Shown here in pieces: positions 1 through 27,169 of a stretch of DNA of 55,813 bases. Origin of the DNA: a virus (lineage: Duplodnaviria > Caudoviricetes); IMG/VR virus record IMGVR_UViG_3300002460_000038, positions 1 to 55,813 of that record. The stretch is one strand, 5' to 3'. The translations under genes and the position numbers were made by a program. The notes under the pieces were generated by a model. The model searched no databases, was not told the DNA's origin, and saw nothing but the letters and a program-made list of their open reading frames with translations. The stretch's first letter is position 1. Each line of letters opens with the position of its first letter.

Positions 1-12
1 GCGGCCCGCCTC
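1..12. repeat. 12-bp terminal direct repeat (also 55802-55813); circular/permuted contig
   Basis: gcggcccgcctc at both ends; endolysin frame continues across the junction. Confidence 0.85.
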
Positions 13-129
13 TACATGGTCGACCGTTGGAGCGATGCGGACAAGCGCCAGAAGGTCTTCGAGGAAGGCGTCGAGAGTCGGGCGTTGGAATTCTTTCTGA
101 GCCGGCCACTCGAGGGCGGTGTCCAGTGA
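1..129 (+). CDS. 3' end of GH108 endolysin (begins at 55397)
   Basis: Frame 1 reads AARLYMVDRWSDADKRQKVFEEG...VQ* and is in frame with 55397-55813. Confidence 0.8.
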   Translation, partial: AARLYMVDRWSDADKRQKVFEEGVESRALEFFLSRPLEGGVQ

Positions 130-539
130 CCGACGTCCTCGCCCCTGGCACGTTTCTCACGCCCTTGGTCCTGCGGCACGTCGGCGGCCGACGGTATCGC
201 GTCGAGCAGGACTTTACCTACATCACGCGCGCTGGTCGGCGCCTCGATGTCCCCGCGGGTTTCGTGACCGATGGCGGGTCGGTGCCACGCCTACTATGGC
301 CGCTCTACCCGCCGTTTGGCTCCGACTGCGACGAGGCGTACGTGCTCCACGACTACGGGTACGCCAACGCCGAACTGCTGAAGATGACGCGCGGCGAGGC
401 CGACGCGTTGATGCGCGAAGTCATGGACGTGAAGGGCTTCCGCGCGAGCGGTCGCGGCGCGGTCTTGGCTGGCGTGCGTCTCGGCGGGTGGCTCTCGTGG
501 CGGAAACATCGAAGGGCGGCTCGCAAGGAGAAGCCATGA
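126..539 (+). CDS. DUF1353-like protein
   Basis: VPAGFVTDGGSVPRLLW...AYVLHDYGY...RGEADALMRE motif; GTGA overlap with endolysin stop. Confidence 0.85.
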   Translation: MTDVLAPGTFLTPLVLRHVGGRRYRVEQDFTYITRAGRRLDVPAGFVTDGGSVPRLLWPLYPPFGSDCDEAYVLHDYGYANAELLKMTRGEADALMREVMDVKGFRASGRGAVLAGVRLGGWLSWRKHRRAARKEKP

Positions 540-887
540 AGGGTGATCGTCTTCCTGATGGCTGGCATCAGACGATGCCACCAGGGTCGTACGGCAAAGA
601 CGACTACGGCTCACATTCGCTGGACGATCGACGGCGATGCACCGGTGGTGGGGGTCGGCTTCGAGGTCGGGGCGCTGTGGGTGTTCGGCTATCCGTTTGT
701 CGGCCGACCCGGGGTCATCGTCTATGAGCGGGACGGCGAGACGTTGAAAGGCCGCTGGACGGTCGGCGGAGCTGAGACCACGTGGTCAGAGACGCTCACG
801 CGCGCGCCGGCGAATCATCCGCCGCCTCCGCCGACGCCGCAACGCGACACGCCGAAGCCCTCCGCCGGCACCGTGCGGCAGCTCTAA
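536..887 (+). CDS. hypothetical protein, possibly frameshifted near its start
   Basis: ATG at 536 with RBS is out of frame with ORF 543-887; removing one G from aagggtg gives MKVIVFLMAG. Confidence 0.45.
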
Positions 888-985: not shown

Positions 986-1585
986 CTACGCCCTGGCTAG
1001 AGCAGCACTTGGGATACCTGCCGTCCTACACCGAGCACGCCATCGTTCGAGCCGTTCTTCGTCCAACCATAGGCACGCGACAGGATTCAGCCCGTCCTGC
1101 AGCCGACCAATGAACAGTGCCAGTTCGTCGGTGAGTTCAAACCACTCCTGATTGATGCGGAGATGCGCAAACCGTTCGTGAACGGCAGCCTCAAGCGCGG
1201 CATGGCACGGTGTGGCGACGAGCAGTTCGAGGGGTTCCGAAGATGACGTCTGGAGCTTTGACCGTCGTTCCTCCGGGTCGACTGAACGGCCAATCTTCAC
1301 CTTCGTTCCAGCCCTCAAGGCGTACAGGTAGCACCATCCGTCGGGGCTGCGTGGCAAGAGCGGTTCGCGCTCCGGAAGTCTCGACAAAAAATCCCAATGT
1401 CCCCGCGCCCGCTCGTCAGTGCGCCAGCGGTCGATGACTTCCAGTGGCGTGGTCAACGGAAATCGCTTGTACGTCTCACGGCCACCGGCATGCTTAACCC
1501 GTGCCTCATATCCGTTCTTCTTGATGCGAATGCCTCTTGAAATACGAGTCGTCGTCGGCATGGCTGGCCGCTTTAGCGACGGCAT
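986..1585 (-). CDS. GIY-YIG (T5orf172/Mug113-like) nuclease with an N-terminal DNA-binding-like region
   Basis: YLYALRAGTKVKIGRS.DPEERRSKLQT...E.AVHERFAHLRINQEWF. Confidence 0.85.
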   Translation of the reverse strand: MPSLKRPAMPTTTRISRGIRIKKNGYEARVKHAGGRETYKRFPLTTPLEVIDRWRTDERARGHWDFLSRLPEREPLLPRSPDGWCYLYALRAGTKVKIGRSVDPEERRSKLQTSSSEPLELLVATPCHAALEAAVHERFAHLRINQEWFELTDELALFIGRLQDGLNPVACLWLDEERLERWRARCRTAGIPSAALARA

Positions 1586-1707
1586 CTCTCTGCTTCCGTT
1601 TCATGCGCGTTCGCACCACTCGCCGGACACTATTTTCGATGCTGTCCATTTAGCTCGCCCAGAAGCATAGCCGGTAAACCATTTAGAATCAGCATCTTGT
1701 AGGACAT

Positions 1708-1753
1708 AAACTTTTTGTTGACAAAAGTTTAGAATCGACACGATACTCTAGCC
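1708..1753 (+). promoter_or_regulatory. sigma70-type early promoter with an overlapping imperfect palindrome (operator); leaderless
   Basis: TTGACA 1718-1723, GATACT 1742-1747, ATG 6 nt later; palindrome aaactttttgt-tg-acaaaagttt. Confidence 0.65.
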
Positions 1754-1993
1754 ATGAAGCTGGGGCGGCGAGAGACGATCAAGAGAACGCTGAAGGCGCT
1801 CAGGGCAACGGCCGACCTCTCACAGATGGCCGTCGCCGAGCGAATTGGCGTGACGGGAAGACGCTACTGGCTCATTGAGAACGGGTATGAGCAGCCCACC
1901 GCCACCGAGTGCAATCGGTTGGCGAAGGTGCTCAAGGTCAAGGTTGACGAACTCGGGTTTCCCTCCTGTCAGGTCGAGGCACGGGCGTCATGA
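1754..1993 (+). CDS. Cro-like XRE HTH regulator
   Basis: LKALRATADLSQMAVAERIGVTGRRYWLIENG. Confidence 0.9.
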   Translation: MKLGRRETIKRTLKALRATADLSQMAVAERIGVTGRRYWLIENGYEQPTATECNRLAKVLKVKVDELGFPSCQVEARAS

Positions 1994-2721
1994 AGCCGGC
2001 GCCGAAGTACCTCACGGTTAAAGAAGCCGAGCAGCACCTGCGAGCCACCTACGGGCGCTCGTTCAAGCGGCATCTGCCTGCCGTGCGTCGGATGCCGGTG
2101 CGGGTGCAGTTGCGCACGTTGCGACTCGCCATCGGGAATCCCTCCCAGATCGAAGTCGAGCAGCTCGCACAGTTGCCGCGCGGTAAGTACTGGCGCATCG
2201 AGAACGGGTACGACGAACCCACACCAGAGGAACGCACGCGACTGGCCTTTGTGTTTCGCGTGAAACTTGCCGGCTTTGACAGTGACAAGGAACTCGGTGT
2301 GGCGATTGGCGACGAGGGACGGCCGATCAGCGCGTCGCAGCTCTCCGCGTGGTTCAGCCGCCAACCGAGGCACCGAGAACCCGCAGACCTGGCGCTTCGA
2401 ACAGCATCCCCGTTTAGGGCCAGCGCTCTTGCTCGCGCGGGCGGAAGTCACCGACGGAGCCGTCGTCAGGGTCTCGATCGAGTTGAACAGGAGGGTCGGA
2501 TGAATCGCATGGCCGTGGATTCGTCTCTGATCGCGAGCGCCGGACACGACGGGGACGCGATGGAAGTGGAACTCGCGAGCGGGCAGGTCTATCGGTACGA
2601 GGGGATCTCGCGCGAGCAGTACGACGCCTTTATGGCCTCGGACTCGAAGGGGAAGTACTTCAACGGCGTCATCAAGGGCGCGTGCGCGTCGTGCACGCGC
2701 GTGGATCGGCACGAGCACTAA
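1990..2721 (+). CDS. XRE HTH protein in frame with a C-terminal KTSC domain (KTSC probably has its own start at 2500)
   Basis: YWRIENGYDEPT HTH; VDSSLIASAGHD..MEVELASGQVYRY..SKGKYFN; RBS ggaggg before 2500. Confidence 0.75.
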   Translation: MKPAPKYLTVKEAEQHLRATYGRSFKRHLPAVRRMPVRVQLRTLRLAIGNPSQIEVEQLAQLPRGKYWRIENGYDEPTPEERTRLAFVFRVKLAGFDSDKELGVAIGDEGRPISASQLSAWFSRQPRHREPADLALRTASPFRASALARAGGSHRRSRRQGLDRVEQEGRMNRMAVDSSLIASAGHDGDAMEVELASGQVYRYEGISREQYDAFMASDSKGKYFNGVIKGACASCTRVDRHEH

Positions 2722-2770
2722 CAACGAAACGCCCGTAACGGCTGCCTGGAAGCTCCCCGTCACGGGCGTC

Positions 2771-4054
2771 ATGGAGAAAACGATGAGCAGTGTAGCACCC
2801 AATCTCATGAACGACAACGACGACCTGACCGACGTCATCGTCGACCCGAACCAACTGACGGCGAAGATTGCCGCCTGGAAAGCCGCGGGCTTCCACGTGC
2901 TCTCTCCGGCCATCAAGTTCACCAGCTTCGCCGTCAACTTCGGCGCGAACGTGGGCGCCCTGGTCATCAGCACCGACCCGGCGATGGGCGAGTGCTACTA
3001 CGACAAGGCGGCCATGAAGGAGGACGAGCGGGCGATTGCGCGCGTCGGCCTCGACAAATTCACGCAGCTCGCCGGCATCTCGTGGTTGCCGTCCAGCCGG
3101 CGCACCGACCCGCGCACGGTAATGAACCTGTGGGAATACCACGTCGATGGCGCCTTCGTCAGCTACGACGGCACGCCGCAAATCATCACCGGGACGTCGG
3201 AAGTCGACCTCCGTGACGGCGGCGCGCAGATTGGCGGTTGGACGCCGCAAGGCTGGAAGGACCTCCTGGCGGCGAACGTGGGGAAGCCCAAGGACCAATG
3301 CACCTGGAATATCGGCGGCTGGAGTGAGCAGCGCGTGATGAATGCGCGCCGGTTCGGGCTGCGGCTGGCGGAAACGAAGGCGAAGAACGCCGCCATTCGC
3401 ACGCTCGGCCTGAAGGGCAAGTACACGCTCGACGAGCTGGCGCGGCCGTTCATCATCCTGCGCTTCCAGTACATCCCGGACATGACCGACGCGAGCGTGC
3501 GGCACATGGTCGCCGCCGCGCACATGCGCGGTATCTCGGCGCTCTACGCCGGCACGGCACACCGGGAGCTGCCGGAACACACAGGCGGGGCCGACATCAT
3601 CGACATTTCGTCGGTGCGCCGGCCAGATCCGGTGCCGGTGTCCGTGGCGCCGCCGCCGGTGGCCGAGACACCACGGGCTGATAGTGCAGCGGCCAGCATC
3701 CAGGTCTCCAAAACCGAAGACGCCGGTTCGAGTCCGGCTCAGCCCGCCACGCCACCCGCCGCGCCCGACGTCTCCCCAGCGAACGTCATCAAGGAAGTGT
3801 CGCGGGAGACGAAGGCGTACGGGGCGAAGCACGCGAAGGCGGGCCAGACGTTTGTCAAGTTCCACATCATCGACGGGAACGGCGTCGACCACGTGACCAT
3901 CCGGGAGAACGTCGGTACGAAGGCGGAGAAGTACTGGCGCGAGCGCATTCCGGTGCGTATTAAGTCCGCGCTGAACGACTTCCGCGAGCAGGAGTTGTCG
4001 GCGATTGACCCGTTGCAGACGGCGCCCGTGGCGGCGGCGGAGATCCGGCTGTGA
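2771..4054 (+). CDS. phage recombination-module protein (putative ssDNA-annealing protein)
   Basis: Long ORF coupled to sbcD; LAETKAKNAAIR..Y..DEL.RPF motif; Pro/Ala linker. Function inferred from context. Confidence 0.55.
   Translation: MEKTMSSVAPNLMNDNDDLTDVIVDPNQLTAKIAAWKAAGFHVLSPAIKFTSFAVNFGANVGALVISTDPAMGECYYDKAAMKEDERAIARVGLDKFTQLAGISWLPSSRRTDPRTVMNLWEYHVDGAFVSYDGTPQIITGTSEVDLRDGGAQIGGWTPQGWKDLLAANVGKPKDQCTWNIGGWSEQRVMNARRFGLRLAETKAKNAAIRTLGLKGKYTLDELARPFIILRFQYIPDMTDASVRHMVAAAHMRGISALYAGTAHRELPEHTGGADIIDISSVRRPDPVPVSVAPPPVAETPRADSAAASIQVSKTEDAGSSPAQPATPPAAPDVSPANVIKEVSRETKAYGAKHAKAGQTFVKFHIIDGNGVDHVTIRENVGTKAEKYWRERIPVRIKSALNDFREQELSAIDPLQTAPVAAAEIRL
3675..3749 (+). tRNA. tRNA-Trp(CCA)-like sequence nested inside a CDS
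   Basis: Cloverleaf gggctga/tcagccc, gtgc/gcat, loop ctCCAaa, gccgg-ttcgagt-ccggc, discriminator G plus CCA; 2 mismatches in anticodon stem. Confidence 0.75.
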
Positions 4055-5337
4055 GCGACGCCGTCACCTTCGTCCAGGTCGGCGACACGCACCTGCACCC
4101 GGGCCCGCGCCAGGCGGACCGGCTCAAGGCGCTCGACCAGATCATCGCGGAGAACGTCACGGTGCCGAACCTTGGCGCGTGGCTCTGGCCGGGCGACCTC
4201 TTCCACCAGCGCAGCACGATCGAGGACCGCAACGCGCTGGCCGCGCGCCTGACGGCGATGGCGAATCGAGCGCCCGTGGTCATTTGCTACGGGAATCACG
4301 ATCTGCCCGGTGACCTCGATGTGTTCGGGAAGCTCGCCACGACCTGGTCGATTCACGTCGTCTCGACGCCGACGGTACTCCAGCTCCCGCTGGCCAGTGG
4401 CGACGTGGCCGCAGTGTTCGTGCTGCCGTACCCGACAGAGGCCGGGTTGGTGTCCCGCGGCGTCGCTCCGGGCGCACTCATCCCGACGGCGCGAGAAGCG
4501 CTGGACGTCATCTTCATGGACGCCGCAGCCAAGCTCGACACCGCGCGCGGCTATGGCTGGCCGACGCTGATGGTTGGTCACGTCAACGTGGCCGGGTCCA
4601 TTACGTCTGCCGGGCAGCCTAACATCGGCGCCGAAATCGAACTGGACGAGGCGCTGCTCGCACGCCTCGGCCCCGGCTGCTACAAGGGCCTGAATCATAT
4701 CCACAAGGCGCAGGCGATTGCCGGCGCGCATTACCCAGGCTCCATCTGTCGGCTCGACTTCGGCGAGATCGAGCCCAAGGGCTACCTCCGCATCGACTAC
4801 CGCCACATGTCCGATGGCCGTCAGTCGGCATGGGTGCCGGTTGAAGTCGAGACCTGCCCGCTGGACGTGCCGCCCCTGTACCACGTCGAGGGCTGGCTGT
4901 CGCGCGAGGGATTCACCTTCGACGTGAAGAAGGGACCTGACGGCGCCGTGCTGGAGAAGCCCGCGTCGTGGCGCGGCTGTCAGGTGCGCGCCCGTATCAA
5001 GTTCCACGAGAGCGAAAAGGGCCTGCTCGAAATGGCGAAGGCCCACGTCATTGCCGAGTTCGCCGAAGCGATGCAGCCGGCGACCTACGAATACCAAGTC
5101 GTCCCCAATGGCGCAGTGCGAGCACCTGAAGTCGCCGCAGCGCGCACGCTGCCCGAGAAGGTGATGGCCTGGGCGGTCGAGACCAAGACCAGCCTCCCCG
5201 CGGACGTGCTGGAACTGTTGCCGGCGCTGGAACACGGCGATGCGGACGCAGTGGCAGTGGAGGAACGTCAGCGGATGGCGGCCTTGCTCGACCCGCCCAC
5301 GGCCGTTGCCGAGGAAAGGCAGGAGGCGGTCGCATGA
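4051..5337 (+). CDS. sbcD: SbcD/Mre11-like metallophosphoesterase nuclease
   Basis: GDTHL, GDLFH, GNHD, GH, NHIHK, YPGS..RLDFGE motifs. Confidence 0.92.
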   Translation: MSDAVTFVQVGDTHLHPGPRQADRLKALDQIIAENVTVPNLGAWLWPGDLFHQRSTIEDRNALAARLTAMANRAPVVICYGNHDLPGDLDVFGKLATTWSIHVVSTPTVLQLPLASGDVAAVFVLPYPTEAGLVSRGVAPGALIPTAREALDVIFMDAAAKLDTARGYGWPTLMVGHVNVAGSITSAGQPNIGAEIELDEALLARLGPGCYKGLNHIHKAQAIAGAHYPGSICRLDFGEIEPKGYLRIDYRHMSDGRQSAWVPVEVETCPLDVPPLYHVEGWLSREGFTFDVKKGPDGAVLEKPASWRGCQVRARIKFHESEKGLLEMAKAHVIAEFAEAMQPATYEYQVVPNGAVRAPEVAAARTLPEKVMAWAVETKTSLPADVLELLPALEHGDADAVAVEERQRMAALLDPPTAVAEERQEAVA

Positions 5338-5570
5338 GGAAGTTCTACCGTCGCCTTCGCGCCCTGCTGTCGCTGTGGTGGGAATGTCGCACGCGGCGGT
5401 GCTCGTACTTCGAGCATTACCTCGCATATGGCCCGCCTGAGCTGAGCCACATCGGCTATCACACCGCGGAGCGCTTGGCCATTCGCCACTTTAACAACTG
5501 CTCTCGGTCGTTTCGCGGCGACGGCCCGTGCCCGTCGTGCCTCGCGTGGGAGCGGAGGGTGCGCGCATGA
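5334..5570 (+). CDS. hypothetical Cys-rich protein
   Basis: ATGA overlaps at both ends; RBS aggagg. Confidence 0.6.
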   Translation: MRKFYRRLRALLSLWWECRTRRCSYFEHYLAYGPPELSHIGYHTAERLAIRHFNNCSRSFRGDGPCPSCLAWERRVRA

Positions 5571-8020
5571 AGCTCGAACGCCTCGAGATCAAGGGTTTCA
5601 TGAACTTCCGCGAGCCGGCGACGCTGGACCTGCGGGACATCCCGTCCGGGCTCGTCTCCATCACCGGCGTCAACGGCCACGGCAAGACGCGGTTGCTCGA
5701 CGCCGGCCCTGGCGCGCTCTACGGGGAGTTCTTCTCCCGCGACGGCAACATGGCCGAGTACGCCACGGAGCCGGACGCCTACATCGACGCGCTGTACCAC
5801 GTCGAAGGCCGCGGGTCCTACCGGGCCCGCATGAACGTGGATGGCGTGAAGGGCAACCGGGACGCCGTCCTCGAGCTGGTGCAGCCGGACGGCTCGAAGG
5901 TGCCCTTGAACGACGGCAAGGTCAGCACGTTCAAGGAGTCGGTCGGCCAGATCTTCCCGCCCAAGGAATTGCTGTTGGCGTCGGCGTTCGCCGCGCAGAA
6001 CCGGGCGGGCTCGTTCGTGTCCCTCGACCGCAGCAAGCGGAAGGACCTGTTCGGGAAGCTGCTCGGGCTGGAGCACTACGCTCGGATGGCGGCCACCGCC
6101 AAGGCGTGCGCCGACATCGTCGAGAGCACCCGGGCCCGGCTCCAGGAGCGTCGTGATTTCCTCCTGCGGGAAACGTCGCCAGCCATCTTCGACGAGCAGC
6201 AGGCTCGGGCGAACGTGCTGCAGGCGGAGCTCGGTAACGCGGGACTGGCGCGCGCCGACCTCCAGACGCAGATTGAAGGGCTGACCGCGGAACGCGCCGA
6301 CCTCACCGAGCAGGCGATGGCGCACCTGAAGTCGCTGGAGCGCATCGAGACCCTGAAGGCGACGATCGCCACGCGTACCGCCGAGCGGGAGCAGGTCGAC
6401 GTCGACCGGCGCGCCGCGCAGGACGGCGCCGTGGTGGAACGGACGCGCGCGGACATTCAGCGCACGACCACGCTGGGCAGCCTGGACGAGCGGGAGCAGG
6501 CCGAGCGTGACCGGCACGCGGCCACGGTGGCAGACCTCCGCGAGCGGATTGCCGGGAATCAGACCCTCAACAGCAAGGCGGACGAGATTCGGGCAGCGTG
6601 CATCGCGAAGGCGGACGCCACGGCGCAGCGCGAGGGGTTGCAGGAGAAAGAGCGGCGTCTCCGCGAGGACCTCGACCAGTTCCGGGACCAGGTCCGCGGC
6701 CGGGAAGGGAAGCTGCGCGAGCTGGCCACCGTCGAGCGGGACCTGACGGCCGCGCGTGAGAGCGCCCGGACGCTGACCGTTGTGAAGTTCGGCGAGCAGT
6801 GCGGCGGTGAGAATCCGTGCCAGTTCGTCGCCAAGGCGGCGGCCGACAAGGGCTCGATTCCTGACCTCGAAGTGCAGGTGCAGCACGTCGCCACGTTGCG
6901 CGAAGGCGTGGCGCTCTGGACCGACAAGGTCACCGCGGCGCAGACCGACATCAAAGCCGTCCTCATCGCCATCGCGCAGGTCGACGCCAGGCTGAAGGGG
7001 CTCGAACCGCTGGCGAAATACGAGCCGGAGCTGGCCGCCACGGAAGCGCGCATCACCGAATACCAGCGCGTGCTCGACAACGAGGATGCGGCGCTCGTCG
7101 GTCGCCTCGCGGACATCGAGGCGCAGCGGAAGGCCGTCGACCTCCAGCACGGTGAGACCTTTGCCGACATCGAACGCCGCTTCGAGGCCCGGTGTGCGGA
7201 GCTGGCGGTCCGGCGCGAGACGCTGCTGGAGGCGTCGTCGCAGGCGCACCAGGCGCTCACCCTGGCCGAGCAGGAGGCCGACACCCTGGCGCCGGCAGCG
7301 CTCCGGCTGAAGGTGCTCGACGAGGAACTGGGGTCCGCGCGTGTCGCCTGGACCACGAATGAAGCCACGCTGGCCGGGCTCGCGGTCCGCAAGGACCAGT
7401 TGACCCGTGAACGGACCGCGCTGGCGGCGAAGCGAGCGGAACTGCAGTCGGTCCTGGACCGGCTGCGCCAGGTCGAGGACCGGTTGCTCTGCTGGAACGT
7501 GTTCGTCAAAGCGTTCGGCCGGGACGGGCTGCCGACGCTGGAGATCGCGGCGGCCGGGCCGACCGTCTCGAACCTGACCAACGACCTGCTCACGGCGTGC
7601 TTCGGCCCGCGGTTCTCCGTGGAGCTCGTCACCCAGGAAGAGCGCGCGGACAAGAAGGGGCTCAAGGAGTGCTTCGAGCTTCGCATTTTTGACAATGAGC
7701 ACGGCGGCGACAGCCGCGATCTGGCGGACCTCTCCGGCGGCGAGAGAGTAATTGTCGACGAGGCGCTACGGGCCGCGCTGGCCTTGTATGTGAACAGCCG
7801 CAACGTCGCCCCAATCCGCACGTGTTGGAGAGACGAAACCTTGGGGGCGCTCGATCCTGACAACGCGACGCGTTATGTCGCGATGCTCCGGCGTCTCCTC
7901 GACCTCGGCGGCTTTCACCACATTCTTTACGTTTCCCACAACCTCGACGCAGCGGCGCTGGCCGACACGCAAATCGTCGTGCGCGACGGCCAGCCCGAAG
8001 TCCTTCGGAGGGTCGCGTGA
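5567..8020 (+). CDS. sbcC: SbcC/Rad50-like SMC ATPase
   Basis: MKLERLEIKGF; Walker A GVNGHGKT; coiled coil; LSGGE signature; DETLGALD; VSH. Confidence 0.93.
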   Translation: MKLERLEIKGFMNFREPATLDLRDIPSGLVSITGVNGHGKTRLLDAGPGALYGEFFSRDGNMAEYATEPDAYIDALYHVEGRGSYRARMNVDGVKGNRDAVLELVQPDGSKVPLNDGKVSTFKESVGQIFPPKELLLASAFAAQNRAGSFVSLDRSKRKDLFGKLLGLEHYARMAATAKACADIVESTRARLQERRDFLLRETSPAIFDEQQARANVLQAELGNAGLARADLQTQIEGLTAERADLTEQAMAHLKSLERIETLKATIATRTAEREQVDVDRRAAQDGAVVERTRADIQRTTTLGSLDEREQAERDRHAATVADLRERIAGNQTLNSKADEIRAACIAKADATAQREGLQEKERRLREDLDQFRDQVRGREGKLRELATVERDLTAARESARTLTVVKFGEQCGGENPCQFVAKAAADKGSIPDLEVQVQHVATLREGVALWTDKVTAAQTDIKAVLIAIAQVDARLKGLEPLAKYEPELAATEARITEYQRVLDNEDAALVGRLADIEAQRKAVDLQHGETFADIERRFEARCAELAVRRETLLEASSQAHQALTLAEQEADTLAPAALRLKVLDEELGSARVAWTTNEATLAGLAVRKDQLTRERTALAAKRAELQSVLDRLRQVEDRLLCWNVFVKAFGRDGLPTLEIAAAGPTVSNLTNDLLTACFGPRFSVELVTQEERADKKGLKECFELRIFDNEHGGDSRDLADLSGGERVIVDEALRAALALYVNSRNVAPIRTCWRDETLGALDPDNATRYVAMLRRLLDLGGFHHILYVSHNLDAAALADTQIVVRDGQPEVLRRVA

Positions 8021-8553
8021 TCAGCCCGACAGGCTTGTGCTGCTGCGGCTGTGGTCAGTCGACGAGGATTGCCGAGTGCGCGAATTCTCGCACTGGTGAT
8101 GTCAAGGGAGAGCCGCGACGTTTCCTGAAGGGGCATCAGACGCGCCGCCCGAGTCCACCTGGAAGGCGGTTGTCCACTGGCGGGTACGTGTTGCTCTTCG
8201 CGCCTGAGCATCCACGCGCTACGACCAACGGTTCTGTCTTTGAGCACATCGTCGTCGCTGAAAAGGCGCTCGGGCGTCTGTTACCACTTGGCGCTGTCGT
8301 GCATCACGTGAACGACGAGAAGGCGGAGAACCGCAACGACAACCTTGTGATTTTGGAAAACAACTCGGAGCACAAGTCCCTCCACCGGCGAAGGCGCGTG
8401 CTGCGTGCCGGCGGGAACCCCTGGACGCAGTGGCTGTGCTCAACGTGCAAGCTCCCGAAGGATTTGACCGAGTTTTATCGCCGGAAGAACGGCTGGGTGA
8501 ACTCGGAGTGCAAGACCTGCGAGCGAAAGCGACGCGGGACGGCGGCGGCGTGA
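8017..8553 (+). CDS. HNH endonuclease
   Basis: CCCGCG; EHIVVAEKALGR.L...VVHHVNDEKAENRNDNL; C-terminal CxxC pairs. Confidence 0.9.
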   Translation: MISPTGLCCCGCGQSTRIAECANSRTGDVKGEPRRFLKGHQTRRPSPPGRRLSTGGYVLLFAPEHPRATTNGSVFEHIVVAEKALGRLLPLGAVVHHVNDEKAENRNDNLVILENNSEHKSLHRRRRVLRAGGNPWTQWLCSTCKLPKDLTEFYRRKNGWVNSECKTCERKRRGTAAA

Positions 8554-8554
8554 C

Positions 8555-8626
8555 CGCAGGCGGGCCGGTGCCCTGTTGGGTCTCATAAGCCCGACGTGCC
8601 GAGTTCGACTCTCGGGCCTGCAACCA
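8555..8626 (+). tRNA. tRNA-Met(CAT), initiator-like with reduced D-arm
   Basis: cgcaggc/gcctgca with C1:A72 mismatch; ggg/ccc anticodon stem; ctCATaa; ccgag-ttcgact-ctcgg; ACCA end. Confidence 0.8.
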
Positions 8627-13884: not shown

Positions 13885-14814
13885 ATGTCCAAGAGCACCA
13901 TATCGACATTTCAACTATTCGAGCGGTTCCCGAATGCCGAGTCGGCGCGGGTCTACCTCGAAAAGCGCCTGTGGCCCGCTGGTGTCGTCTGCCCGGTCTG
14001 TAAGGCTGGTGAGCGCATCACGACGCGGAAGGGCGGGTACTACCGCTGCAACGCCTGTAACGAGGACTTCACGGTCAGGACGGGGACCATCTTCGAGCGG
14101 TCGCACGTTCCGCTGCACAAGTGGCTGTACGCGATGTATCTGCTCGTCACAGCGCGCAAGGGCATCAGCAGCTTGCAGCTTGCCAAGGAAATCGGCGTGA
14201 CGCAAAAGACGGCATGGTTCCTGCTCCATCGGCTGCGCGAAGCCTGCGGCGGGCGCAACCTGAAGAAGCTGCGCGGCATCGTGGAGATTGACGAGTGCTT
14301 CGTCGGCGGGCTCGAAGGGAACAAGCACGCGCACAAGAAGCTGCACGCTGGACGCGGGCCAGTCGGCAAAACGGCCGTGCTCGGGATGCGGGAACGCGGC
14401 GGGCGCACGGTTGCCAAGCCGTCGCAGCAGATGACCTTCGACGAACTGCACGGCGAGATTCACGCGAACGTCGAGCCCGGTTCCACGCTCTACACGGACG
14501 ACCACGCGATTTTCGAGGGGTTGGACGGCCTGTTCTTCCAGCACGACACCATCAACCACACCATCGGCGAGTACGCGCGCGGGCCGGTCAGCACGAACAG
14601 TATCGAAAGCGTCTGGGCCGTCCTGAAGCGCGGGATTCTCGGCGTCTATCACCACACCAGCCCGAAGCATTTGGCCCGCTACGTGGATGAATTTACGTTC
14701 CGGCTGAACGAAGGGAACGTCAAGGTTCACACGCTGGACCGGCTGGATTCGTTCGTGGATGGCGTCGTCGGCAAGCGCCTGACCTATGCGGGGTTGACCG
14801 AATGCCAAAACTGA
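13885..14814 (+). CDS. IS1595-family DDE transposase
   Basis: Zn ribbon CPVC..CNAC; FTVRTGTIFE.SH; VEIDE, YTDD, NSIESVW, YVDEFTFR. Confidence 0.95.
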   Translation: MSKSTISTFQLFERFPNAESARVYLEKRLWPAGVVCPVCKAGERITTRKGGYYRCNACNEDFTVRTGTIFERSHVPLHKWLYAMYLLVTARKGISSLQLAKEIGVTQKTAWFLLHRLREACGGRNLKKLRGIVEIDECFVGGLEGNKHAHKKLHAGRGPVGKTAVLGMRERGGRTVAKPSQQMTFDELHGEIHANVEPGSTLYTDDHAIFEGLDGLFFQHDTINHTIGEYARGPVSTNSIESVWAVLKRGILGVYHHTSPKHLARYVDEFTFRLNEGNVKVHTLDRLDSFVDGVVGKRLTYAGLTECQN

Positions 14815-14934: not shown

Positions 14935-16242
14935 ATGCTGACCGTTGGCAGCTTGTTCGCTGGAATTGGCGGGTTTGACTTGGGCTTCGAGCGCAACGGT
15001 TTCGAGGTTCGATGGCAAGCCGAGCAGGACAAGAAGGCCCAGGCCGTGCTCTCTGCTCGGTTCCCAACAGCGCGCCTGTATGACGACGTGCGAACTGTCG
15101 GAGCGGCGACCGTTGAACGGGTAGACGTGATCTGCGGCGGGTTTCCGTGTCAGGACGTGAGCGTGGCCGGTCAGCGCAAAGGACTCGGCGGCGAGCGAAC
15201 GGGGTTGTTCTGGGAAGCAGTCAGGATTATCGATGAACTCAAACCGACATGGGCAGTCCTCGAAAACGTACCAGGGCTCCTTAGTTCTCACGGCGGGCGA
15301 GACTTTCACACCGTCCTGTCGGCACTGGCCGACCTCGGGTTTCGACGGGCCTACCGGATTTTGGACAGCCGATATTTCGGAGTCGCCCAACGTCGGCGCC
15401 GCGTGTTCATTGTCCTCTGTGCTCGAAGACTCGGTGATGGTGCCGAAACGGTTCTTTTTGAGTCCGAGAGCGGCGGCGGGGATTCTCAGACGGGCGCAGA
15501 AACGCGGGCGCGTGTTGCCGCCACACTTAGAGGCCGCTCTCACGGCATTGGCGTCAACATGGAAGACCCCTACATCACGTACGCGATCGGCTCCCACGCG
15601 GGCGCGGCGGACGGCGACCAAACGAACCGGAGCCATGCCAGCGGCGGGCCTGTCGGAATGAACATCAGCGAGGAAGTCGGCTATTCGTTGCGGGCAGGGC
15701 GAACGCAGAGCATTGCCTACACGCTCCGAGACAACGGCCGGAACACCAGCCAAGGGCCGGGTAACTACGTGAGCGCACTCTGCCCGGTTGGTGGCGGACC
15801 TGATGATAACGACGCTCAGGCGGGCCATTTGATCGTCCCAGAGAGAGAGCGCGCGCTTGTCGGCTCGATGCACAAACGGCACGACGACGACACGGACACG
15901 CTGATTCCGACCCTGAGCGCCAGTCTGGGGCATCACGGCCATAGCTCCCCGCGCGGCGACGGCAATGATCCGCTGGTCGCATTCGCGCTCAGGGCGGACC
16001 CCGGAGGCACAGGGCAGGCCCACAACACGACATATCCCGGCGGCGTGCGTCGGTTGACCCCGCTCGAATGCGAACGGCTACAGGGCTTCCCGGACGGTTG
16101 GACGTGCCTGTGTGGCGAAGGGTATCGAGGGTCGAGTTTCTGCACTTGTTCAGACTCCCCGCGGTATCGGCAGTTAGGAAACGCGGTTACGGTCAACGTC
16201 GCCGAGTGGATCGCGCAGCGCGTCCTCGAAGCGGACAGGTGA
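14935..16242 (+). CDS. DNA (cytosine-5) methyltransferase
   Basis: SLFAGIGG, GGFPCQD, ENVPG, QRRRRVF, RRLTPLECERLQGF, YRQLGNAV. Confidence 0.95.
   Translation: MLTVGSLFAGIGGFDLGFERNGFEVRWQAEQDKKAQAVLSARFPTARLYDDVRTVGAATVERVDVICGGFPCQDVSVAGQRKGLGGERTGLFWEAVRIIDELKPTWAVLENVPGLLSSHGGRDFHTVLSALADLGFRRAYRILDSRYFGVAQRRRRVFIVLCARRLGDGAETVLFESESGGGDSQTGAETRARVAATLRGRSHGIGVNMEDPYITYAIGSHAGAADGDQTNRSHASGGPVGMNISEEVGYSLRAGRTQSIAYTLRDNGRNTSQGPGNYVSALCPVGGGPDDNDAQAGHLIVPERERALVGSMHKRHDDDTDTLIPTLSASLGHHGHSSPRGDGNDPLVAFALRADPGGTGQAHNTTYPGGVRRLTPLECERLQGFPDGWTCLCGEGYRGSSFCTCSDSPRYRQLGNAVTVNVAEWIAQRVLEADR
15233..15661 (+). CDS. overlapping alternative-frame ORF within the MTase (M.EcoHK31I beta-like)
   Basis: SESPNVGAACSLSSVLE...KRFFLSPRAAAGILRRAQKRGRVLP..LEAAL. 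Confidence 0.6.
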   Translation: MNSNRHGQSSKTYQGSLVLTAGETFTPSCRHWPTSGFDGPTGFWTADISESPNVGAACSLSSVLEDSVMVPKRFFLSPRAAAGILRRAQKRGRVLPPHLEAALTALASTWKTPTSRTRSAPTRARRTATKRTGAMPAAGLSE

Positions 16243-16407
16243 ATATGTGCCATACTACGCGAGGGAGTCATGTATATAATTCCCCATCAGATTGAGGCTG
16301 GCGCCTGGGCGATGTTCACGCGAGCGAGCTGGCGTCAGACTGGCAACCGCCGAGCGGCAGCGACAGTCGAGCCGCCGGCTCCGCCTTCAACCCGACCGAG
16401 ATCCTGC

Positions 16408-18120
16408 ATGAGTTCAGCACGCGGTATTTTTCTGCAATGGGAAGGAAGGCGCGCATACCGCCAACGCATTCCGACGCCCCGCATTCTTGAACCCGTCGCG
16501 AAGCTGTCGGTCGGCAAGATCGACGACAACCTGATCATCGAAGGCGACAGCGTGCAAGCGATGGCGTCTCTCAAGAGCCGCTACGCCGGAGCCGTCGATG
16601 TGGTCTACATCGATCCGCCTTACAACCTCGGGAAAGACGACTTCCGCTACAGCGACAAGCGATTTCACGATCCCGACGCCGACGACAGCGATGCCGTCTA
16701 CGTGACGAATGAAGACGGCGGCCGACACACGAAATGGCTCAACGTCATGGCCCCCTGTCTGTACATGCTGTGGGAGATGCTTCGCGCTGATCGCGGCGTG
16801 ATCTTCGTCAGCATCAACGATGTCGAGCTATTTCGACTCGGGCTGTTGCTCAACGAGATTTTCGGCGAGGAAAATTGGGTTGGCACCATCGTCTGGAAAA
16901 GCGCAACCGATAACAATCCGACGAACGTCGCAATCGAGCACGAATATATTCTGTGCTACGCGAAGTCGAAGGCGACACTTCCGAGTGAATGGAAGAACCC
17001 GGACACCGAAGCCAAACGGCTGATGCTTGAAACGTATGCACAGATCAAAAAAGATGCGCCGACTCCGAAGGCGCTACAAAAGAGCTTCAGCGCATTCGTC
17101 AAAGAACACGCCGATTTTCTCGGCGATCTGGCTCGCTATCGACACGTAGACAAGCACGGCCCCTTCGTCTCTCGCCGCAATCTGGACAACCCCGGCAAGC
17201 CCGGACACAAGTTCGACGTGATCCACCCGGTCACGAAGAAGCCGTGCGCGAAACCGTATTGGGGTTGGCGGTTTACCGAAGCCCGGTTCAAAGAATTGAT
17301 GCGTGACGGTCGGATTCTCTTCGGGAAAGACGAAAAGCGCATTCCCCAACTCAAGGTTTACCTTGACGAAGTGGATTTCCCGTTGCGAAGCGTCATCCAA
17401 CTGGACGCACGAGCGGGATCAAACGACCTTGAACGGCTCTTCGGATCACGAGACGTGTTCAAGAACCCGAAGCCCGTTGATCTGATCGAGAGGTTGATCG
17501 GCTTTGCTTCAGAGCGCGACAGCATTATTTTGGACGCTTTCGCCGGCAGCGGAACGACCGGCGAAGCCGTCCTTCGCCTCAACAACCGAGATGGCGGGAA
17601 ACGCCGCTTTATTTTGATCGAGGAAGGTCGCGGCAAGAACGGGAAGGATCGGTTCTGCCGGACGTTGACCGCCGAACGTGTCAAGCGTGCGATCAAGGCG
17701 GATGGCTACGACGACGGCTTCATGTTCTACCAGACCGGCCGCAAGCTGGATCGTGGTGCGATCATTGGCTTGGAACGTGACGCGCTCGCGAATCTGATCT
17801 GCCAATCCGACGAGACCGGACGCGGGAAATCCATTACGCGCTTGACGGGCCATACGTACGTCATCGGGAAGAATCCGCGCGGCGAAGCCATTTGTCTCGT
17901 CTGGAAAGGTGCGGATAAGAGCGAAGTCACACGCGCCGATCTCGAAGGCGCAGCTTCCGAAGTGACCGCGTCGTCGCTAAAGCGGCCGTTCCGTATTTAT
18001 GGCACGTCCTGCAAAATTGCCGACGTGCCGACGAGCTTCCGCTTCTGCCAGATTCCTGATGAGATTATGACGCAGATGCACATCAACGACATTCTCGAAC
18101 CGGAACTAGAACAGGTTTAG
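16408..18120 (+). CDS. mod: type III R-M Mod-like adenine DNA methyltransferase
   Basis: NLIIEGD, YIDPPYN, H.KWL, FKNPKPVDLI, ILDAFAGSGTT; more A/T-ending codons than neighbouring genes. Confidence 0.88.
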   Translation: MSSARGIFLQWEGRRAYRQRIPTPRILEPVAKLSVGKIDDNLIIEGDSVQAMASLKSRYAGAVDVVYIDPPYNLGKDDFRYSDKRFHDPDADDSDAVYVTNEDGGRHTKWLNVMAPCLYMLWEMLRADRGVIFVSINDVELFRLGLLLNEIFGEENWVGTIVWKSATDNNPTNVAIEHEYILCYAKSKATLPSEWKNPDTEAKRLMLETYAQIKKDAPTPKALQKSFSAFVKEHADFLGDLARYRHVDKHGPFVSRRNLDNPGKPGHKFDVIHPVTKKPCAKPYWGWRFTEARFKELMRDGRILFGKDEKRIPQLKVYLDEVDFPLRSVIQLDARAGSNDLERLFGSRDVFKNPKPVDLIERLIGFASERDSIILDAFAGSGTTGEAVLRLNNRDGGKRRFILIEEGRGKNGKDRFCRTLTAERVKRAIKADGYDDGFMFYQTGRKLDRGAIIGLERDALANLICQSDETGRGKSITRLTGHTYVIGKNPRGEAICLVWKGADKSEVTRADLEGAASEVTASSLKRPFRIYGTSCKIADVPTSFRFCQIPDEIMTQMHINDILEPELEQV

Positions 18121-19343: not shown

Positions 19344-20135
19344 GTGCCTGGCAAAGCCTCACGCGAAAACGGGAAGAAGGGCGGACGTCCCCGGAAACAT
19401 CCGCGCGCCAATCCGCCCGAAACGCCAGCGAAACCACTCGGAAAGTGGGCGCTCACGCGCCGTGAAGAACTCTTCGTCCATCAAATCGTTACCTTCCCTG
19501 AGAAAACCCAAGGCGAGTGCTACCGCGACGCTGGGTTCCGCGTGAAGACCGCGGACACCGCGTCGACGAATGCGGCGCGGTTGCTCGGAAAGGATCGAGT
19601 CGCCCGGGCGCTCGCGGCGGCGCGCCAGGCGTTGGCCGAGCGGCACCAGATTACGCAGGACCGCGTGCTGAAGGAACTCGGGCGCATTGGGTTTGCGGAC
19701 TTGCGGAAGCTGTTCGAGGAACGGCAGGGCCGCGGCGAGATGACGGCCGAGCAGATGTACGCGTCGGCCAATGCGGACTCCGCGACGAAGGCGCCGACGT
19801 TCGCCGAGTTGCCGGCGGCGGTGCAGGCCGCCTGGAAGGCCGCGGCGGCGATCGCGGGCTCGAAGGTCAGCGGCGGGTATTTCCTGAAGTCGCCCGACCA
19901 GCTCGACGACGACACGGCGGCGTGCCTCGCCGGCATCGAGGTCGTGACGAAGAACATCGGCGACGGCGAGGTTGAGTACGTCCACAAGGTGAAGACCGTG
20001 GACAAGTTGGGGGCGCTGACGACGATCGCGAAGCACCTCGGCATGTTGAAGGACAAGGGGGAGACCCCGAACGTGGTTCCGCTGTTCGCGCTGCCAGCGG
20101 ATGCCCGGCCTGATGTGAGCGGCGCAGGAACGTAG
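19344..20135 (+). CDS. terS: terminase small subunit
   Basis: ASRENGKKGGRP; AGF..TASTNAARLL; ITQDRVLKELGRIGFADLR; DKLGAL..IAKHLGM. Confidence 0.9.
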   Translation: MPGKASRENGKKGGRPRKHPRANPPETPAKPLGKWALTRREELFVHQIVTFPEKTQGECYRDAGFRVKTADTASTNAARLLGKDRVARALAAARQALAERHQITQDRVLKELGRIGFADLRKLFEERQGRGEMTAEQMYASANADSATKAPTFAELPAAVQAAWKAAAAIAGSKVSGGYFLKSPDQLDDDTAACLAGIEVVTKNIGDGEVEYVHKVKTVDKLGALTTIAKHLGMLKDKGETPNVVPLFALPADARPDVSGAGT

Positions 20136-20611: not shown

Positions 20612-20976
20612 TCGACGCTCGCGCGGCGTCGACCGCCCCTGATCGACCGCAGGCCCCAGATGCTGGCTTCCGGTCGGTCGGGGCGCTCATTCAGGACATC
20701 ACCGCTGCCCACGGGCGGATGTCTGCGAACAATCCCCATCGCGCCATCCTCGAGCAGTGCGGCATCGCGCTCGGCGAACTCGCCGTGCAGCTCCACAACG
20801 AGCGGTCGAAGCACCGCGCTGCGGTCAAGGCGGTCCTGGACGCGGTCGTCGACATGCGGAATGTCGTTGCAGAACATCGGAAGTGGGCAGACGGTCTGAA
20901 CTTGCCGCAAGAGTCGTTGCTGTCGGCGATTGACGGGTGGGAAGAGGCGCTGTCCGGCATCGAGGGAGTCGTGTGA
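20608..20976 (+). CDS. hypothetical protein
   Basis: Coupled start and stop overlaps. Confidence 0.6.
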   Translation: MIDARAASTAPDRPQAPDAGFRSVGALIQDITAAHGRMSANNPHRAILEQCGIALGELAVQLHNERSKHRAAVKAVLDAVVDMRNVVAEHRKWADGLNLPQESLLSAIDGWEEALSGIEGVV

Positions 20977-21194
20977 TGCCGAAGGTGCTCTGTCAGGCGG
21001 AGACGGTCAACGGCTGCTTCCGTGTCGTCACCGGGAGCCCGAAGGCGGGCAGCGCGCCCGTCGTCGAGCGGCGCTCGACACCGGACGCGATGGGGATCGA
21101 CGTCTGGCAGCCGGTGACGGCCGACTGTGCGCTGCACGCGCTCGAGGCCGTGGTCGGGTATTTCGCCGCGGCCGACGCGGGAGGCGACGCGTGA
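20976..21194 (+). CDS. hypothetical protein
   Basis: RBS gggag; TGATG overlap. Confidence 0.55.
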   Translation: MPKVLCQAETVNGCFRVVTGSPKAGSAPVVERRSTPDAMGIDVWQPVTADCALHALEAVVGYFAAADAGGDA

Positions 21195-24100
21195 ATGTTG
21201 TCCTCCTGGTCCTGCTGATGGCGACCACCGCAGTCCCTTCGCAGCGACGGTTGGGCGCGGCCGGCGTCGTCGAGACCCAGACGATTGATTGGGCCTCGCC
21301 CGTTCAGCACGCCGCGTTCAAGTACGGCCCGTTCCCGCAGCTCGCGTCCGGGGGCTTCGGCTGCGTGGCCGGTGATACGCGGATCTTCGATGCGGAGACG
21401 GCACGGGAGTGGACGTTTGCGCAACTCGCCGCCACTGGTCGTCAGCCGATCGTGTTGGCGTGGACGGGCGACGGGTTCGCGTGGGTGCGCGCGAGTGCAC
21501 CTGTTCGGAAGGGCGTGGCGCGGCTCTATCGGATTCGAACGCGGTCTGGGAAGTCCATCGTGGTTACTTCCGCCCACCGGTTTTTGACCGACTCAGGTTG
21601 GTCAAGTGCTGGCGATATGACCCGTTCCGATGCCCGCGCCGGACGCCTTCGAGTGTCCGACGTCGACCCTCTGGCGTCCACTCTGGGCATTTCCCTTTCA
21701 GTGTCTCAGCGAGATGTTGACTGTTTCCTGAATACAGGCGCAGGTTCTCAATCGCGTTGTGCTGGTGATCGTCGTCAACGTGATGGACGACCTCGGTCGG
21801 CTCGAGAAATCGTCCGATGGCCGCTTCCATCACCAGTCGGTGCTCGCGCACATAGCCTGCGGCGTTTGCGTGCGGATGTTGCGGACATTGCACCAGCACG
21901 TAGCCGTCCTTATCGATTGTCCGGCCGCCCTTCCAGTCTCGATGCTTCGCTCCAGGCTGCGCGCCTCGGTTCTGCACCGGGAAGCCATGACGATGACAGA
22001 AGCGGCGCACTTGCTCAGGCTCGACTGGGAGCCGGAGGCGCTCCTGAATCTCTGGACACGTCAAGCCTTGTTCTGCGAGATGGCGGATTTGGACAAGGAA
22101 CGGCACTAGCTGGCCACGCTCTTTCATGCCTTGATTATATCGTGGAAGTGGTGGATTTGGGTGAGGGTGAATTCTATGACGTGCACGTGCCCGTCTGGAA
22201 TAACTACCTCGCGCACGGCTTCATCAATCACAACTCCGGCAAGACCTACGAAGGCTGCCTGAAGGGCCTCTGGCTCTCGGATGTGTTCCCGCGTAACCGC
22301 GGGCTCATCTTCCGGTCCGTCGCCAAGGACCTCCGCGCGACGACGATGGCCACGTTCAAGAAAATCTGCCCGCCGTCGGCGTACAGCGCGCCGGATGCCG
22401 GATGGAACCGCATGGAGGGCCTGACCCGGTTGAACAACGGATCAGAGATTCTCTGGCTCGGGCTCGACAATCCGGAGCTCGAAGACATCCTGAAGGGGCT
22501 CGAAATCAACTGGTTCCTCGGCGACCAGGCGGAAGACACTGCCGAGGAAATCTTCGACACGCTCATGGGGCGCCTTGGCCGGTGGGACCAGGCGGAGGTG
22601 CCGCAATGGCTGCTCGATGAGGAAGATGCCGCCGGTCGCCCGTGGCGCTGGCGGCATCCTGTCTCCGGCAAGCCGACGCCGCCGACCTACCCGATGCTGA
22701 CGTGCAACCCGGACACCGAGCTGCACTGGCTGTATCGGCGCTTCCATCCCGAAAGCCCTGAGCATTACGACCGCCGCCTGCCGGACCTTGACCTGACGAC
22801 GGGCCAACCGACCGGCAAGCTCGTGAGCTATCACGACCTCGGGTACCGGCTGTTTCACATGCCGTCGCTCGAGAACAAGTTCCTGCCGGCGCAGAACCGC
22901 GCGCATCTGCTTGCGCAGGATGATGCGTTCCGCCGACGGTACGTCGAGGGCATCTGGGGCCTCCCGGAAGGCGCTATCCACGTCGTCGACAAGCGGTCGC
23001 TCATCACCTTGGAGGACCAGGCGCAGGCCGACGCGTTTCTCACGTTGCTGCGGGAGACGTGCACGCTGCACCGGTTCCTTGACCACGGCGACTCCGCGCC
23101 GACCTGCTGCCTGTGGCTGGCGATCGACCGCCAGGGCAACATGTTCTGGTTCCGCGAGTACTACGTTCCGAATCAGCTCATCTCGTATCACCGCCGCGAG
23201 ATCACGACCTTGTCGCAGGGTGAGCGGTACACCTTCAATCAGGCCGACCCGAGCATCTTCAACAAGACGATGCAGAAGCACGGCGGTCGCTGGTCGGTGG
23301 CCGACGAGTACGAGGACAAGCGCGAGAGCCCGGCTGAGACCGCCATCTTCTGGGAGCCAGCCGACAACAACGAGCTCGGCACCCGCAACCGCATCAACGA
23401 ATACCTCCGCATCGATCCGGAGCGCATCCACCCCTACACGAAGGAGCGCGGCGCGCCGCGGATGTTCTTCATCGTGCGGACGGACGCGTACCCGCAGGGC
23501 GTCATGCACGCGCTTCGTGAGACCAGGGCGCAGCGGCGCCAGAAGCTCGGGACCGAGATGGGGCGCCCGGTGTTCAGCGACGAGCGCGACGAGAACATTG
23601 CCGACCACGGGTATGACTGCCTCGCTGGCGACACGACTGTGCTCACGCGCGACGGGTGGCAGCCGATTGCGTCGCTGGTTGGAACCGAGAGCGACATCTG
23701 GACGCTGGCAGGGTGGCAGCCGTATACGGACTGCCGCCGTTACCGGAGTGGGAGCGCAATGGTTCGCGTTGAGACGCGCGAAGGCGCGTTCCGCTGCACG
23801 CCGGATCATTTGATTCTGACAAGCGATGGCTGGAAACGTGCCGACGCGCTCACGAGTCGTGATACCATAGCGCAATGCAACCAGTGGTCATATCTCGGAC
23901 CATTCAATCCTTCAAGGGACTCAGGTACTACCTCTGCGGCTTCTATTTTCAGCGCGATGGGAAGCGGCTTCATCGCGCAGTGTGGGAGCATCATCACGGC
24001 CCTGTGCCAGTTGGCCACCATGTCCATCACGTCGATGGCGACAGGGCCAATAATGGGGATGGCAACCTCGTGCTTCTCGCCGAATTCACGCACCTCAGCG

Positions 24101-26952: not shown

Positions 26953-26954
26953 CG

Positions 26955-27167: not shown

Positions 27168-27169
27168 AT

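Follow-up and report, generated by a model that had tools for sequence, protein, structure and literature searches.

A tRNA-Trp-derived element read in frame within the predicted linker of a probable Rad52-like phage protein

We report that a nearly intact transfer RNA (tRNA) sequence lies in frame, on the sense strand, inside a protein-coding gene of a phage. The DNA analyzed, hereafter called the window, is the IMG/VR virus record IMGVR_UViG_3300002460_000038, a stretch of 55,813 bases with about 65% G+C and an estimated completeness of 57%. The element, a tRNA-Trp(CCA)-derived sequence of 75 nt at positions 3675..3749 (+), falls within the open reading frame (ORF) 2771..4054 (+), whose product of 427 aa is predicted from homologues, their alignment and AlphaFold2 models to combine a Rad52-like N-terminal domain, a disordered linker and a C-terminal OB fold. 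The reading that we favor, with moderate confidence, is that a copy of tRNA-Trp was recently captured by this gene, has been tolerated there and is now translated as linker.

The tRNA nature of the element emerges from several kinds of comparison. ARAGORN calls a tRNA-Trp with anticodon CCA at exactly 3675-3749 (+), comprising a body of 72 nt followed by an encoded CCA, while cmscan matches positions 3675-3746 to Rfam family RF00005 along the whole model (1-71 of 71) with 52.5 bits and an E value of 1.8e-8, the gathering score of the family being 29 bits. This is the sole match to any of 4227 Rfam families in the entire window, even at E <= 1. A preliminary description of this DNA, made from its letters alone, had described a cloverleaf with mismatches restricted to the anticodon stem and had named ARAGORN and a covariance model as checks; both programs return a tRNA over the full element, and inspection of the stems pair by pair, using the sequence and the cmscan alignment, bears out the same account. 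The acceptor stem has seven Watson-Crick pairs out of seven, the D stem four out of four (one of them G-U) and the T stem five out of five, whereas the anticodon stem is paired at three of its five positions; the mismatches are confined to the adjacent pairs C27.A43 and A28.G42, as had been described. The positions conserved for the tertiary fold of tRNA are U8, A14, G18-G19, U33, the T-loop UUCRA and C61, and the element carries each of these bases, with the GG in its D-loop and UUCGAGU as its T-loop sequence. The identity elements for tryptophanyl-tRNA synthetase, namely anticodon CCA and discriminator G73, are also in place, the anticodon at 34-36 and the discriminator G between the acceptor stem and the encoded CCA. 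Searching 50,697 GenBank phage records with blastn, we found matches to the element in 42; the 40 that are listed correspond to tRNA-Trp (27), tRNA-Cys (6), tRNA-Arg (2), tRNA-OTHER (2) and unannotated sequence (3), so that matches to annotated tRNA genes are far above chance. These comparisons put it beyond doubt that the element is a tRNA-Trp by descent and not a chance look-alike. (Of note, ARAGORN makes a second call in the window, a tRNA-Met at 8555-8626 (+), directly past the stop codon of an HNH endonuclease gene at 8017-8553; this call has no Rfam match even at E <= 10 and is probably either false or a badly decayed tRNA.)

Judging from its homologues, the ORF that encloses the element is one real and continuous gene, because these proteins span it with conserved domains on both sides of the linker. 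We found 101 homologues of the product at E <= 1e-3, many of which span 86-99% of the query, and the proteins P0001-P0003 show 59-66% identity with 91-99% of the query covered. Their alignment presents a conserved N-domain, a Pro/Ala-rich stretch of variable length and sequence, and a C-domain of about 80 residues that is likewise conserved. A separate C-terminal gene beginning past the tRNA was considered and rejected: its start would have to be the only in-frame GTG, near 3797, with AAGGAAG directly abutting it, and the conservation among homologues (VSPAN...) begins upstream of that GTG. The protein matches no Pfam family at E <= 0.01, its sole PHROG is number 13782, a family of unknown function, and its profile finds no match below E 1 among PDB sequences.

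The models produced by AlphaFold2 contain two confident folds, at residues 20-255 and 335-415, while the predicted local distance difference test (pLDDT) falls below 50 for residues 255-294, 297-300 and 302-333. The region between the folds is the Pro/Ala-rich linker, predicted to be disordered (residues 255-333, encoded at 3533..3769 (+)), which the homologue alignment also displays. Translation of the element gives RADSAAASIQVSKTEDAGSSPAQPA, corresponding to residues 302-326 of the 427-aa product and lying wholly within the linker of low pLDDT; the earlier claim that the tRNA is read in frame on the sense strand of the ORF, within a Pro/Ala linker, is thereby confirmed. Measured between shared anchor motifs, the linker has 46 aa here and 54, 63 and 52 aa in P0001-P0003, respectively. 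The element supplies 25 of the 46 residues and only 21 would be left without it; since it provides most of the spacer, selection would have cause to preserve an open frame across it.

The two folded domains resemble known structures at modest levels of similarity. The N-terminal domain (residues 20-256, 2828..3538 (+)), when modelled alone, reaches a pLDDT of 93.6, and its six best matches among 48,161 PDB representatives are two structures of RAD52, one each of Mgm101 and Red-beta, and two of Sak. The Z scores are 6.2 and 6.1 for human RAD52 (root-mean-square deviation 8.4-8.5 with 142-143 positions aligned), 5.1 for Mgm101, 4.6 for lambda Red-beta and 4.6 and 4.5 for Sak of phage 80-alpha, RecT being at rank 31; all these values are under the noise guide of the comparison tool (Z of about 8), and Foldseek gives an E value of about 0.1 for RAD52. 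On the strength of this model, the domain is a probable Rad52-like single-strand annealing domain. The C-terminal domain (residues 335-415, 3773..4015 (+)) has a pLDDT of about 81-90 and, when its model (residues 335-419) was compared using VIA-align, matched OB-fold chains including single-strand binding (SSB) proteins with Z scores of 8.8-7.0. These values are at the noise guide of the tool, yet they are consistent and span the domain, which is kept in the full-length homologues.

Among the relatives examined, the element is private to this phage. ARAGORN, applied to 37 homologous loci scanned whole, found a tRNA inside the homologous gene in none of them; only locus L004 has a tRNA at all, a tRNA-Ser downstream of the gene. 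The closest relative for which DNA was compared is locus L010, whose protein is 64-70% identical by different measures and whose gene likewise follows a KTSC gene, and neither L010 nor L011, the two closest loci, yields a tRNA by cmscan at E <= 10. (P0001 and P0002 were compared as proteins, the DNA comparison covering 37 other loci.) At the protein level, a crude screen for peptides that the T-loop would encode in any frame found none in the linkers of the 101 homologous proteins, its eight hits all lying in folded domains or outside the linker. Searches for a relative bearing the element were negative in GenBank phages (blastn and tblastn with the gene), in IMG/VR (scans with the profile and with the single protein) and in metagenome contigs (profile scan). 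The profile pattern used for the IMG/VR and metagenome scans misses the window's own sequence; the single-protein scan of IMG/VR was added, and it finds no close relative. Presence or absence in homologous genes, which the preliminary description had proposed to check, comes out as absence for all the loci and proteins that we examined.

We then looked for a possible source of the sequence. The exact stretch of 25 bases from the T-arm to the discriminator occurs neither in IMG/VR nor in the species genomes of genome_contigs, and a degenerate pattern of the anticodon loop and T-arm retrieves 24 loci, all of which are tRNA-Trp. The best full-length identity to any of 27 collected tRNA-Trp genes is about 0.71. 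A set of 401 Acidobacteriota genomes was chosen because two of the homologues are named as proteins of Vicinamibacterales metagenome-assembled genomes; the best match there extends over 36 bases at 92%, and perfect stretches reach 19 bases at most. The protein family itself is present in one of the 401 genomes, with a weak match, and in none of the five genomes that hold the most similar tRNA-Trp genes. No direct repeat of at least 8 nt and no target-site duplication brackets the element. The tetramer CCAC does occur at 3671-3674 and 3747-3750, with a spacing of 76 nt that is out of frame with an insert of 75 nt, and was rejected also for being too short. Codons for Pro and Ala resume at once on both flanks, so that any foreign piece would be about the size of the tRNA itself. 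Consistent with a distinct history, the G+C content at third codon positions (GC3) is 0.64 in the 25 codons of the element versus 0.89 in the rest of the gene (binomial P 0.001), and the ten windows of 25 codons with the lowest GC3 in the gene all overlap the element.

The favored reading, recent capture, may be outlined as follows. Once this lineage had separated from the nearest of its known relatives, a tRNA-Trp gene, either as a copy or as a complementary DNA (for example of a mature, CCA-ended tRNA), would have entered the disordered linker of the Rad52-like protein. Because its 75 nt amount to 25 codons without a stop in this frame, the reading frame would have survived and the insert would simply be translated. 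Residues from the element would now account for over half of the linker, which without them would fall far short of its length in the relatives, and for this reason the protein probably depends on them as a spacer; the element is probably losing its function as an RNA, since two adjacent non-pairs weaken its anticodon arm. One of the possibilities raised in the preliminary description, a captured tRNA recycled as linker, fits the absence in relatives, the location in a disordered linker, the lack of the codon bias seen in the rest of the gene and the damaged stem, while the insertion, its recency and the loss of tRNA function are what we infer from them.

How damaged the element is as a tRNA can be gauged against a set of 27 natural tRNA-Trp genes, three annotated in phages and 24, each confirmed by ARAGORN, from bacterial genomes. 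Within this set the 28-42 pair is mismatched in six genes and the 27-43 pair in six, and the two mismatches never occur together. The Rfam scores of the 20 genes that were scored range from below 29 bits (unlisted, locus L051) to 68.5 bits; on these data the Rfam score does not separate the element from working genes, but the anticodon stem does. The canonical cloverleaf is predicted at -26.5 kcal/mol and an alternative fold, with GUCU from the anticodon arm base-paired to AGAC from the variable region, at -28.6, thus making the canonical form 2.1 kcal/mol worse; the predicted probability of the canonical anticodon-stem pairs is 0.03. Fold stability relative to shuffled sequences is weak (z -1.74 for the element alone, z -0.52 in a context of 175 nt), with the acceptor and T stems remaining paired in the fold predicted within that context. 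The tRNA-Trp of phage CliffHanger has an identical 3' strand of the anticodon stem and an identical variable region (ACCGAAGAC), together with a matching 5' strand. The two unpaired bases of the element are adjacent on that 5' strand, and such a pair of neighbors is what would be left by one small mutational event in a once-paired stem. Avoidance of stop codons was rejected as a cause of the two mismatches, as paired alternatives at these positions create no stops; besides, the element can be read through without a stop in two of its three sense frames.

Several observations weigh against recent capture and decay. The other three stems keep all 16 of their pairs and the loops every conserved base, and a sequence so near to complete must be either very young or partly maintained, since a relic that had long been neutral would show more damage. 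A single mismatch at 28-42 or 27-43 is present in 12 of the 27 natural genes, and the 52.5 bits of the element outscore 13 of the 20 natural genes scored alike. The thermodynamic argument is weak, because three natural tRNA-Trp genes likewise have near-zero predicted probabilities for the anticodon stem and because the bacterial genes of the comparison set were picked by their anticodon-loop and T-arm pattern and are not a random sample. Low GC3 would equally be expected from constraint at the RNA level. Furthermore, neither a pre-insertion allele nor a donor tRNA was found in the collections searched, and for this reason the terms insertion and recent rest on the absence of the element in relatives that are 59-66% identical in protein.

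The assembly of the region was verified in public data. Positions 3300-4100 are present in 20 public runs of 17 studies, seven being flagged as possible sources and none of those listed being recorded as RNA. Contigs from unflagged runs cover 3645-4100 (X8 record 17), 3525-3726 (X15 record 7) and 3323-3701 (X14 record 1) with 0 differences, and both junctions of the element are reproduced by independent assemblies. In the contigs of this phage from four unflagged runs, which are of low coverage and available as contigs only, we saw no variant letters, indels or joints, and the population therefore gives no information on constraint. Short pieces of tRNA-Trp genes of other organisms also align to 3703-3739, with 3-5 differences.

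The genes around the element form a row on the same strand. The row opens with a helix-turn-helix (HTH) protein gene at 1754-1993 (+; Pfam HTH_31/HTH_3) and continues with a KTSC-domain protein gene at 1990-2721 (+; Pfam KTSC), the same gene that precedes the homologue in L010. After the gene carrying the element there follow an SbcD-like nuclease gene at 4051-5337 (+; Pfam Metallophos, PHROG 100), the start of which overlaps the stop of the enclosing gene, and an SbcC-like ATPase gene at 5528-8020 (+; AAA_23, PHROG 77, and Pfam SMC_N at 36.3 bits, below the cut-off of 40). Upstream of the HTH gene, at 1718..1747 (+), lies TTGACA-18-GATACT, a sigma-70-like promoter match by consensus only and the only one in 1500-5500, where 0.4 would be expected. 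The same scan of 1500-5500 found neither a promoter-like site immediately before the tRNA nor any terminator-like site on the + strand. The label of recombination operon used in the preliminary description appears reasonable, given that the SbcD- and SbcC-like genes adjoin and that the six best folds for the N-domain are those of annealing proteins, albeit at modest Z.

The element might still act as an RNA, and a working tRNA and an RNase P site taken jointly represent an improbable, though by no means negligible, alternative to recent capture on the sequence evidence. That the same 75 nt would be read as the spacer of a recombination protein and also be released by RNase P as a tRNA-Trp or a decoy we consider unlikely; as part of such a double role, a decoy with an altered anticodon stem may escape host defences that cut tRNA. 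In the form of a dual-coding tRNA, RNase P and 3' trimming would cut some of the polycistronic early transcripts to yield a functional tRNA-Trp, supplementing that of the host or replacing one depleted by anticodon nucleases, while transcripts reached first by ribosomes would give the full-length protein. Such a function would agree with a full-length covariance match whose score is mid-range among natural tRNA-Trp genes, with the presence of the tertiary-interaction bases, anticodon CCA, discriminator G and encoded CCA, and with the low GC3 if this reflects constraint on the RNA. It would also agree with the element being the only credible tRNA in 55.8 kb (the tRNA-Met call at 8555-8626 having no Rfam match) and with the many phages that carry tRNA-Trp genes, phage tRNAs having been proposed to resist host tRNA nucleases in the passages of PMC10264068 that concern them. 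Yet the double mismatch of the anticodon stem is found in 0 of the 27 natural genes and the arm is predicted to misfold, each excision would destroy the mRNA of a conserved protein and leave a 5' fragment lacking a stop, and there is no promoter-like site of its own. Because the element is absent from all the relatives examined, there is no sign of selection for tRNA function, and the full-text literature searched contains no comparable case; we rate a dual-coding tRNA as distinctly unlikely. Lower still would be the chance of an element that is processed without decoding. For this, the minihelix of acceptor and T-arm would suffice for a cut by RNase P at 3675, an enzyme that recognizes the acceptor and T stems of tRNA; the cut would uncouple expression of the annealing protein from that of the downstream SbcCD-like genes or, in the decoy variant, the excised tRNA-like RNA would soak up a host nuclease directed at tRNA. 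The acceptor and T stems are indeed perfect (12 of 12 pairs), remain paired in the fold predicted for 175 nt, and belong to the sense strand of a row of genes that has one promoter-like site, located upstream. However, this function would find no conservation in any relative, the in-context fold is no more stable than shuffles (z -0.52, against -1.74 alone), and translation should keep the region unfolded for much of the time.

The other two alternatives to recent capture are much less probable. The preliminary description had suggested comparison with a host tRNA-Trp as a possible attachment site, and a phage attachment site (attP) inside the gene would mean that integration into a host tRNA-Trp gene splits the recombination gene. 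There is a precedent of tRNA-derived attP cores inside a phage coding gene in the pertinent passages of PMC9262239, and L010 contains a probable fragment of a tyrosine integrase roughly 2 kb before the homologous gene (Phage_integrase at 21.9 bits, below the cut-off of 27.1, in an ORF that runs off the contig), suggesting that relatives of this phage may be temperate. (In L010, this observation concerns 1-765 (-) and 986-1510 (-).) Against such a site, the exact 25-base 3' stretch is missing from the species genomes of genome_contigs and from IMG/VR, the longest perfect match in the 401 Acidobacteriota genomes being 19 bases, and no integrase family was found in the 36 + 6 window ORFs scanned, on a contig that is only 57% complete. 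L010 has its integrase fragment and yet no tRNA, and a whole cloverleaf, 5' half included, exceeds the 35-bp 3' core of the precedent. The suggestion is left unsupported, no identical host tRNA stretch of at least 25 bp having been found in the genomes searched, nor an integrase in the window ORFs, although the host may be unsampled, and we regard an attP as very improbable. We give almost no credence to an artefact, whether a chimeric metagenome assembly or a random GC-rich look-alike of a tRNA. The sequence does come from a metagenomic contig without a close relative in the collections searched; but contigs of unflagged runs cross both junctions with 0 differences, the insert keeps the frame with linker-type sequence on both sides, and an E value of 1.8e-8 rules out chance.

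With regard to known systems, we rate the element as related to phage tRNA genes, to tRNA-derived attP cores inside genes and to exonised tRNA-derived repeats. Gene 2 of Curtobacterium phage CliffHanger, gene 3 of Streptomyces phage Celia and the tRNA cluster of Streptomyces phage Shaeky provide the same RNA family and isotype; these free-standing tRNA-Trp share with the element the anticodon arm and T-arm, at 80-85% identity over 55-69% of its length, but they lie between protein genes and have fully paired anticodon stems, whereas the element is in frame in a coding sequence and has two positions unpaired. Signals for RNase P processing occur within longer transcripts in the tRNA cluster of phage T4 and in mitochondrial 'tRNA punctuation', where the tRNA is placed between coding regions. 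If cut, the element would similarly separate upstream from downstream messages, but it differs in being inside a coding region and in frame. In animal genes, exonised short interspersed elements (SINEs) derived from tRNA form translated, tolerated and often disordered segments, being retroposed, highly degenerate and spread by dedicated machinery. The element resembles them in that DNA derived from a tRNA has come to lie within a gene and is read as protein; it departs from them as a single, almost intact tRNA in a phage, without flanking repeats or a target-site duplication. Inteins, too, are foreign DNA that survives in a gene by keeping its frame, and this phage also has an intein ORF besides homing-endonuclease genes; an intein, however, removes itself from the protein, whereas the element remains part of the protein and brings no machinery with it. 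A parallel for tRNA-derived sequence that is also read as phage protein comes from phages with integration-dependent immunity (mycobacteriophage clusters G, N and P; Broussard et al. 2013), in which the attP core lies inside the repressor gene according to the relevant passages of PMC9262239 (see also PMC10865867). That core is described in the same passages (PMC9262239) as 35 bp copied from the 3' end of a host tRNA, situated beside the integrase gene, co-transcribed with it and matching the bacterial attachment site attB, whereas the element is a whole cloverleaf, with no integrase found in the window ORFs and no matching host tRNA in the genomes searched. The full-text literature that we searched, with subscription journals largely outside it, describes no phage or bacterial protein gene that contains a complete tRNA in frame.

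For now, the element is an isolated but well-verified curiosity. Should it be no more than a captured copy, it would offer a clean natural example of disordered linkers absorbing foreign DNA, and of a non-coding RNA gene turned into phage protein sequence, as is the case for tRNA-derived repeats in animals. If it is still processed, it would constitute a new way for a phage genome to accommodate a tRNA or a site of mRNA cleavage, and would tie the recombination operon to the contest between phage and host over tRNAs (as treated in the corresponding passages of PMC10264068). There is also a warning for genome annotation, since a rule forbidding overlap between tRNA and coding genes would delete or split a real gene.

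The remainder of the window indicates a phage unusually rich in mobile DNA. Homing-type nuclease genes are found at 986-1585 (-) and at 8017-8553, 26861-27577, 28956-29498 and 32312-32929 (+), amounting to one T5orf172/MUG113 (GIY-YIG-like), three HNH_3 and one endonuclease VII. A transposase of the IS1595 family is encoded at 13885-14814 (+; DDE_Tnp_IS1595 at 135.8 bits plus a zinc ribbon) and is followed by genes for a C-5 cytosine methylase (14935-16242) and an N6/N4 DNA methylase (16270-18120). Past the small terminase gene (19344-20135), an ORF of 1219 aa at 20930-24589 (+) contains two stretches of an intein splicing domain (PF14890) and is probably a large terminase invaded by an intein. 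With such a load of mobile DNA, breaks and their repair with stray templates would be plausible. The structural genes at 24710-26737, 36231-37926 and 48650-54718 (+) resemble those of phage SU10, including a portal, which at 29.7 bits narrowly misses the cut-off of 30 bits, and two adaptor-like proteins; an ORF of 2022 aa among them has no Pfam match.

Finally, the comparison set of natural genes provided two observations of its own. Six Streptomyces tRNA-Trp genes (L042, L043, L050, L060, L061 and L065) have a C.A mismatch at 28-42 and ARAGORN calls of 78 nt, and may represent a second type of tRNA-Trp, possibly prophage-borne; the two among them that were scored with Rfam gave 43.6 (L042) and 43.7 bits (L043). 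In five Streptomyces loci, Rfam matches of 64-70 bits to the small RNA ASdes lie about 0.6-1.6 kb downstream of tRNA-Trp (L042 5322-5389, L044 1729-1796, L047 2271-2338, L054 4372-4439 and L055 6991-7058), a conserved neighborhood of ASdes and tRNA-Trp that is unrelated to the element.

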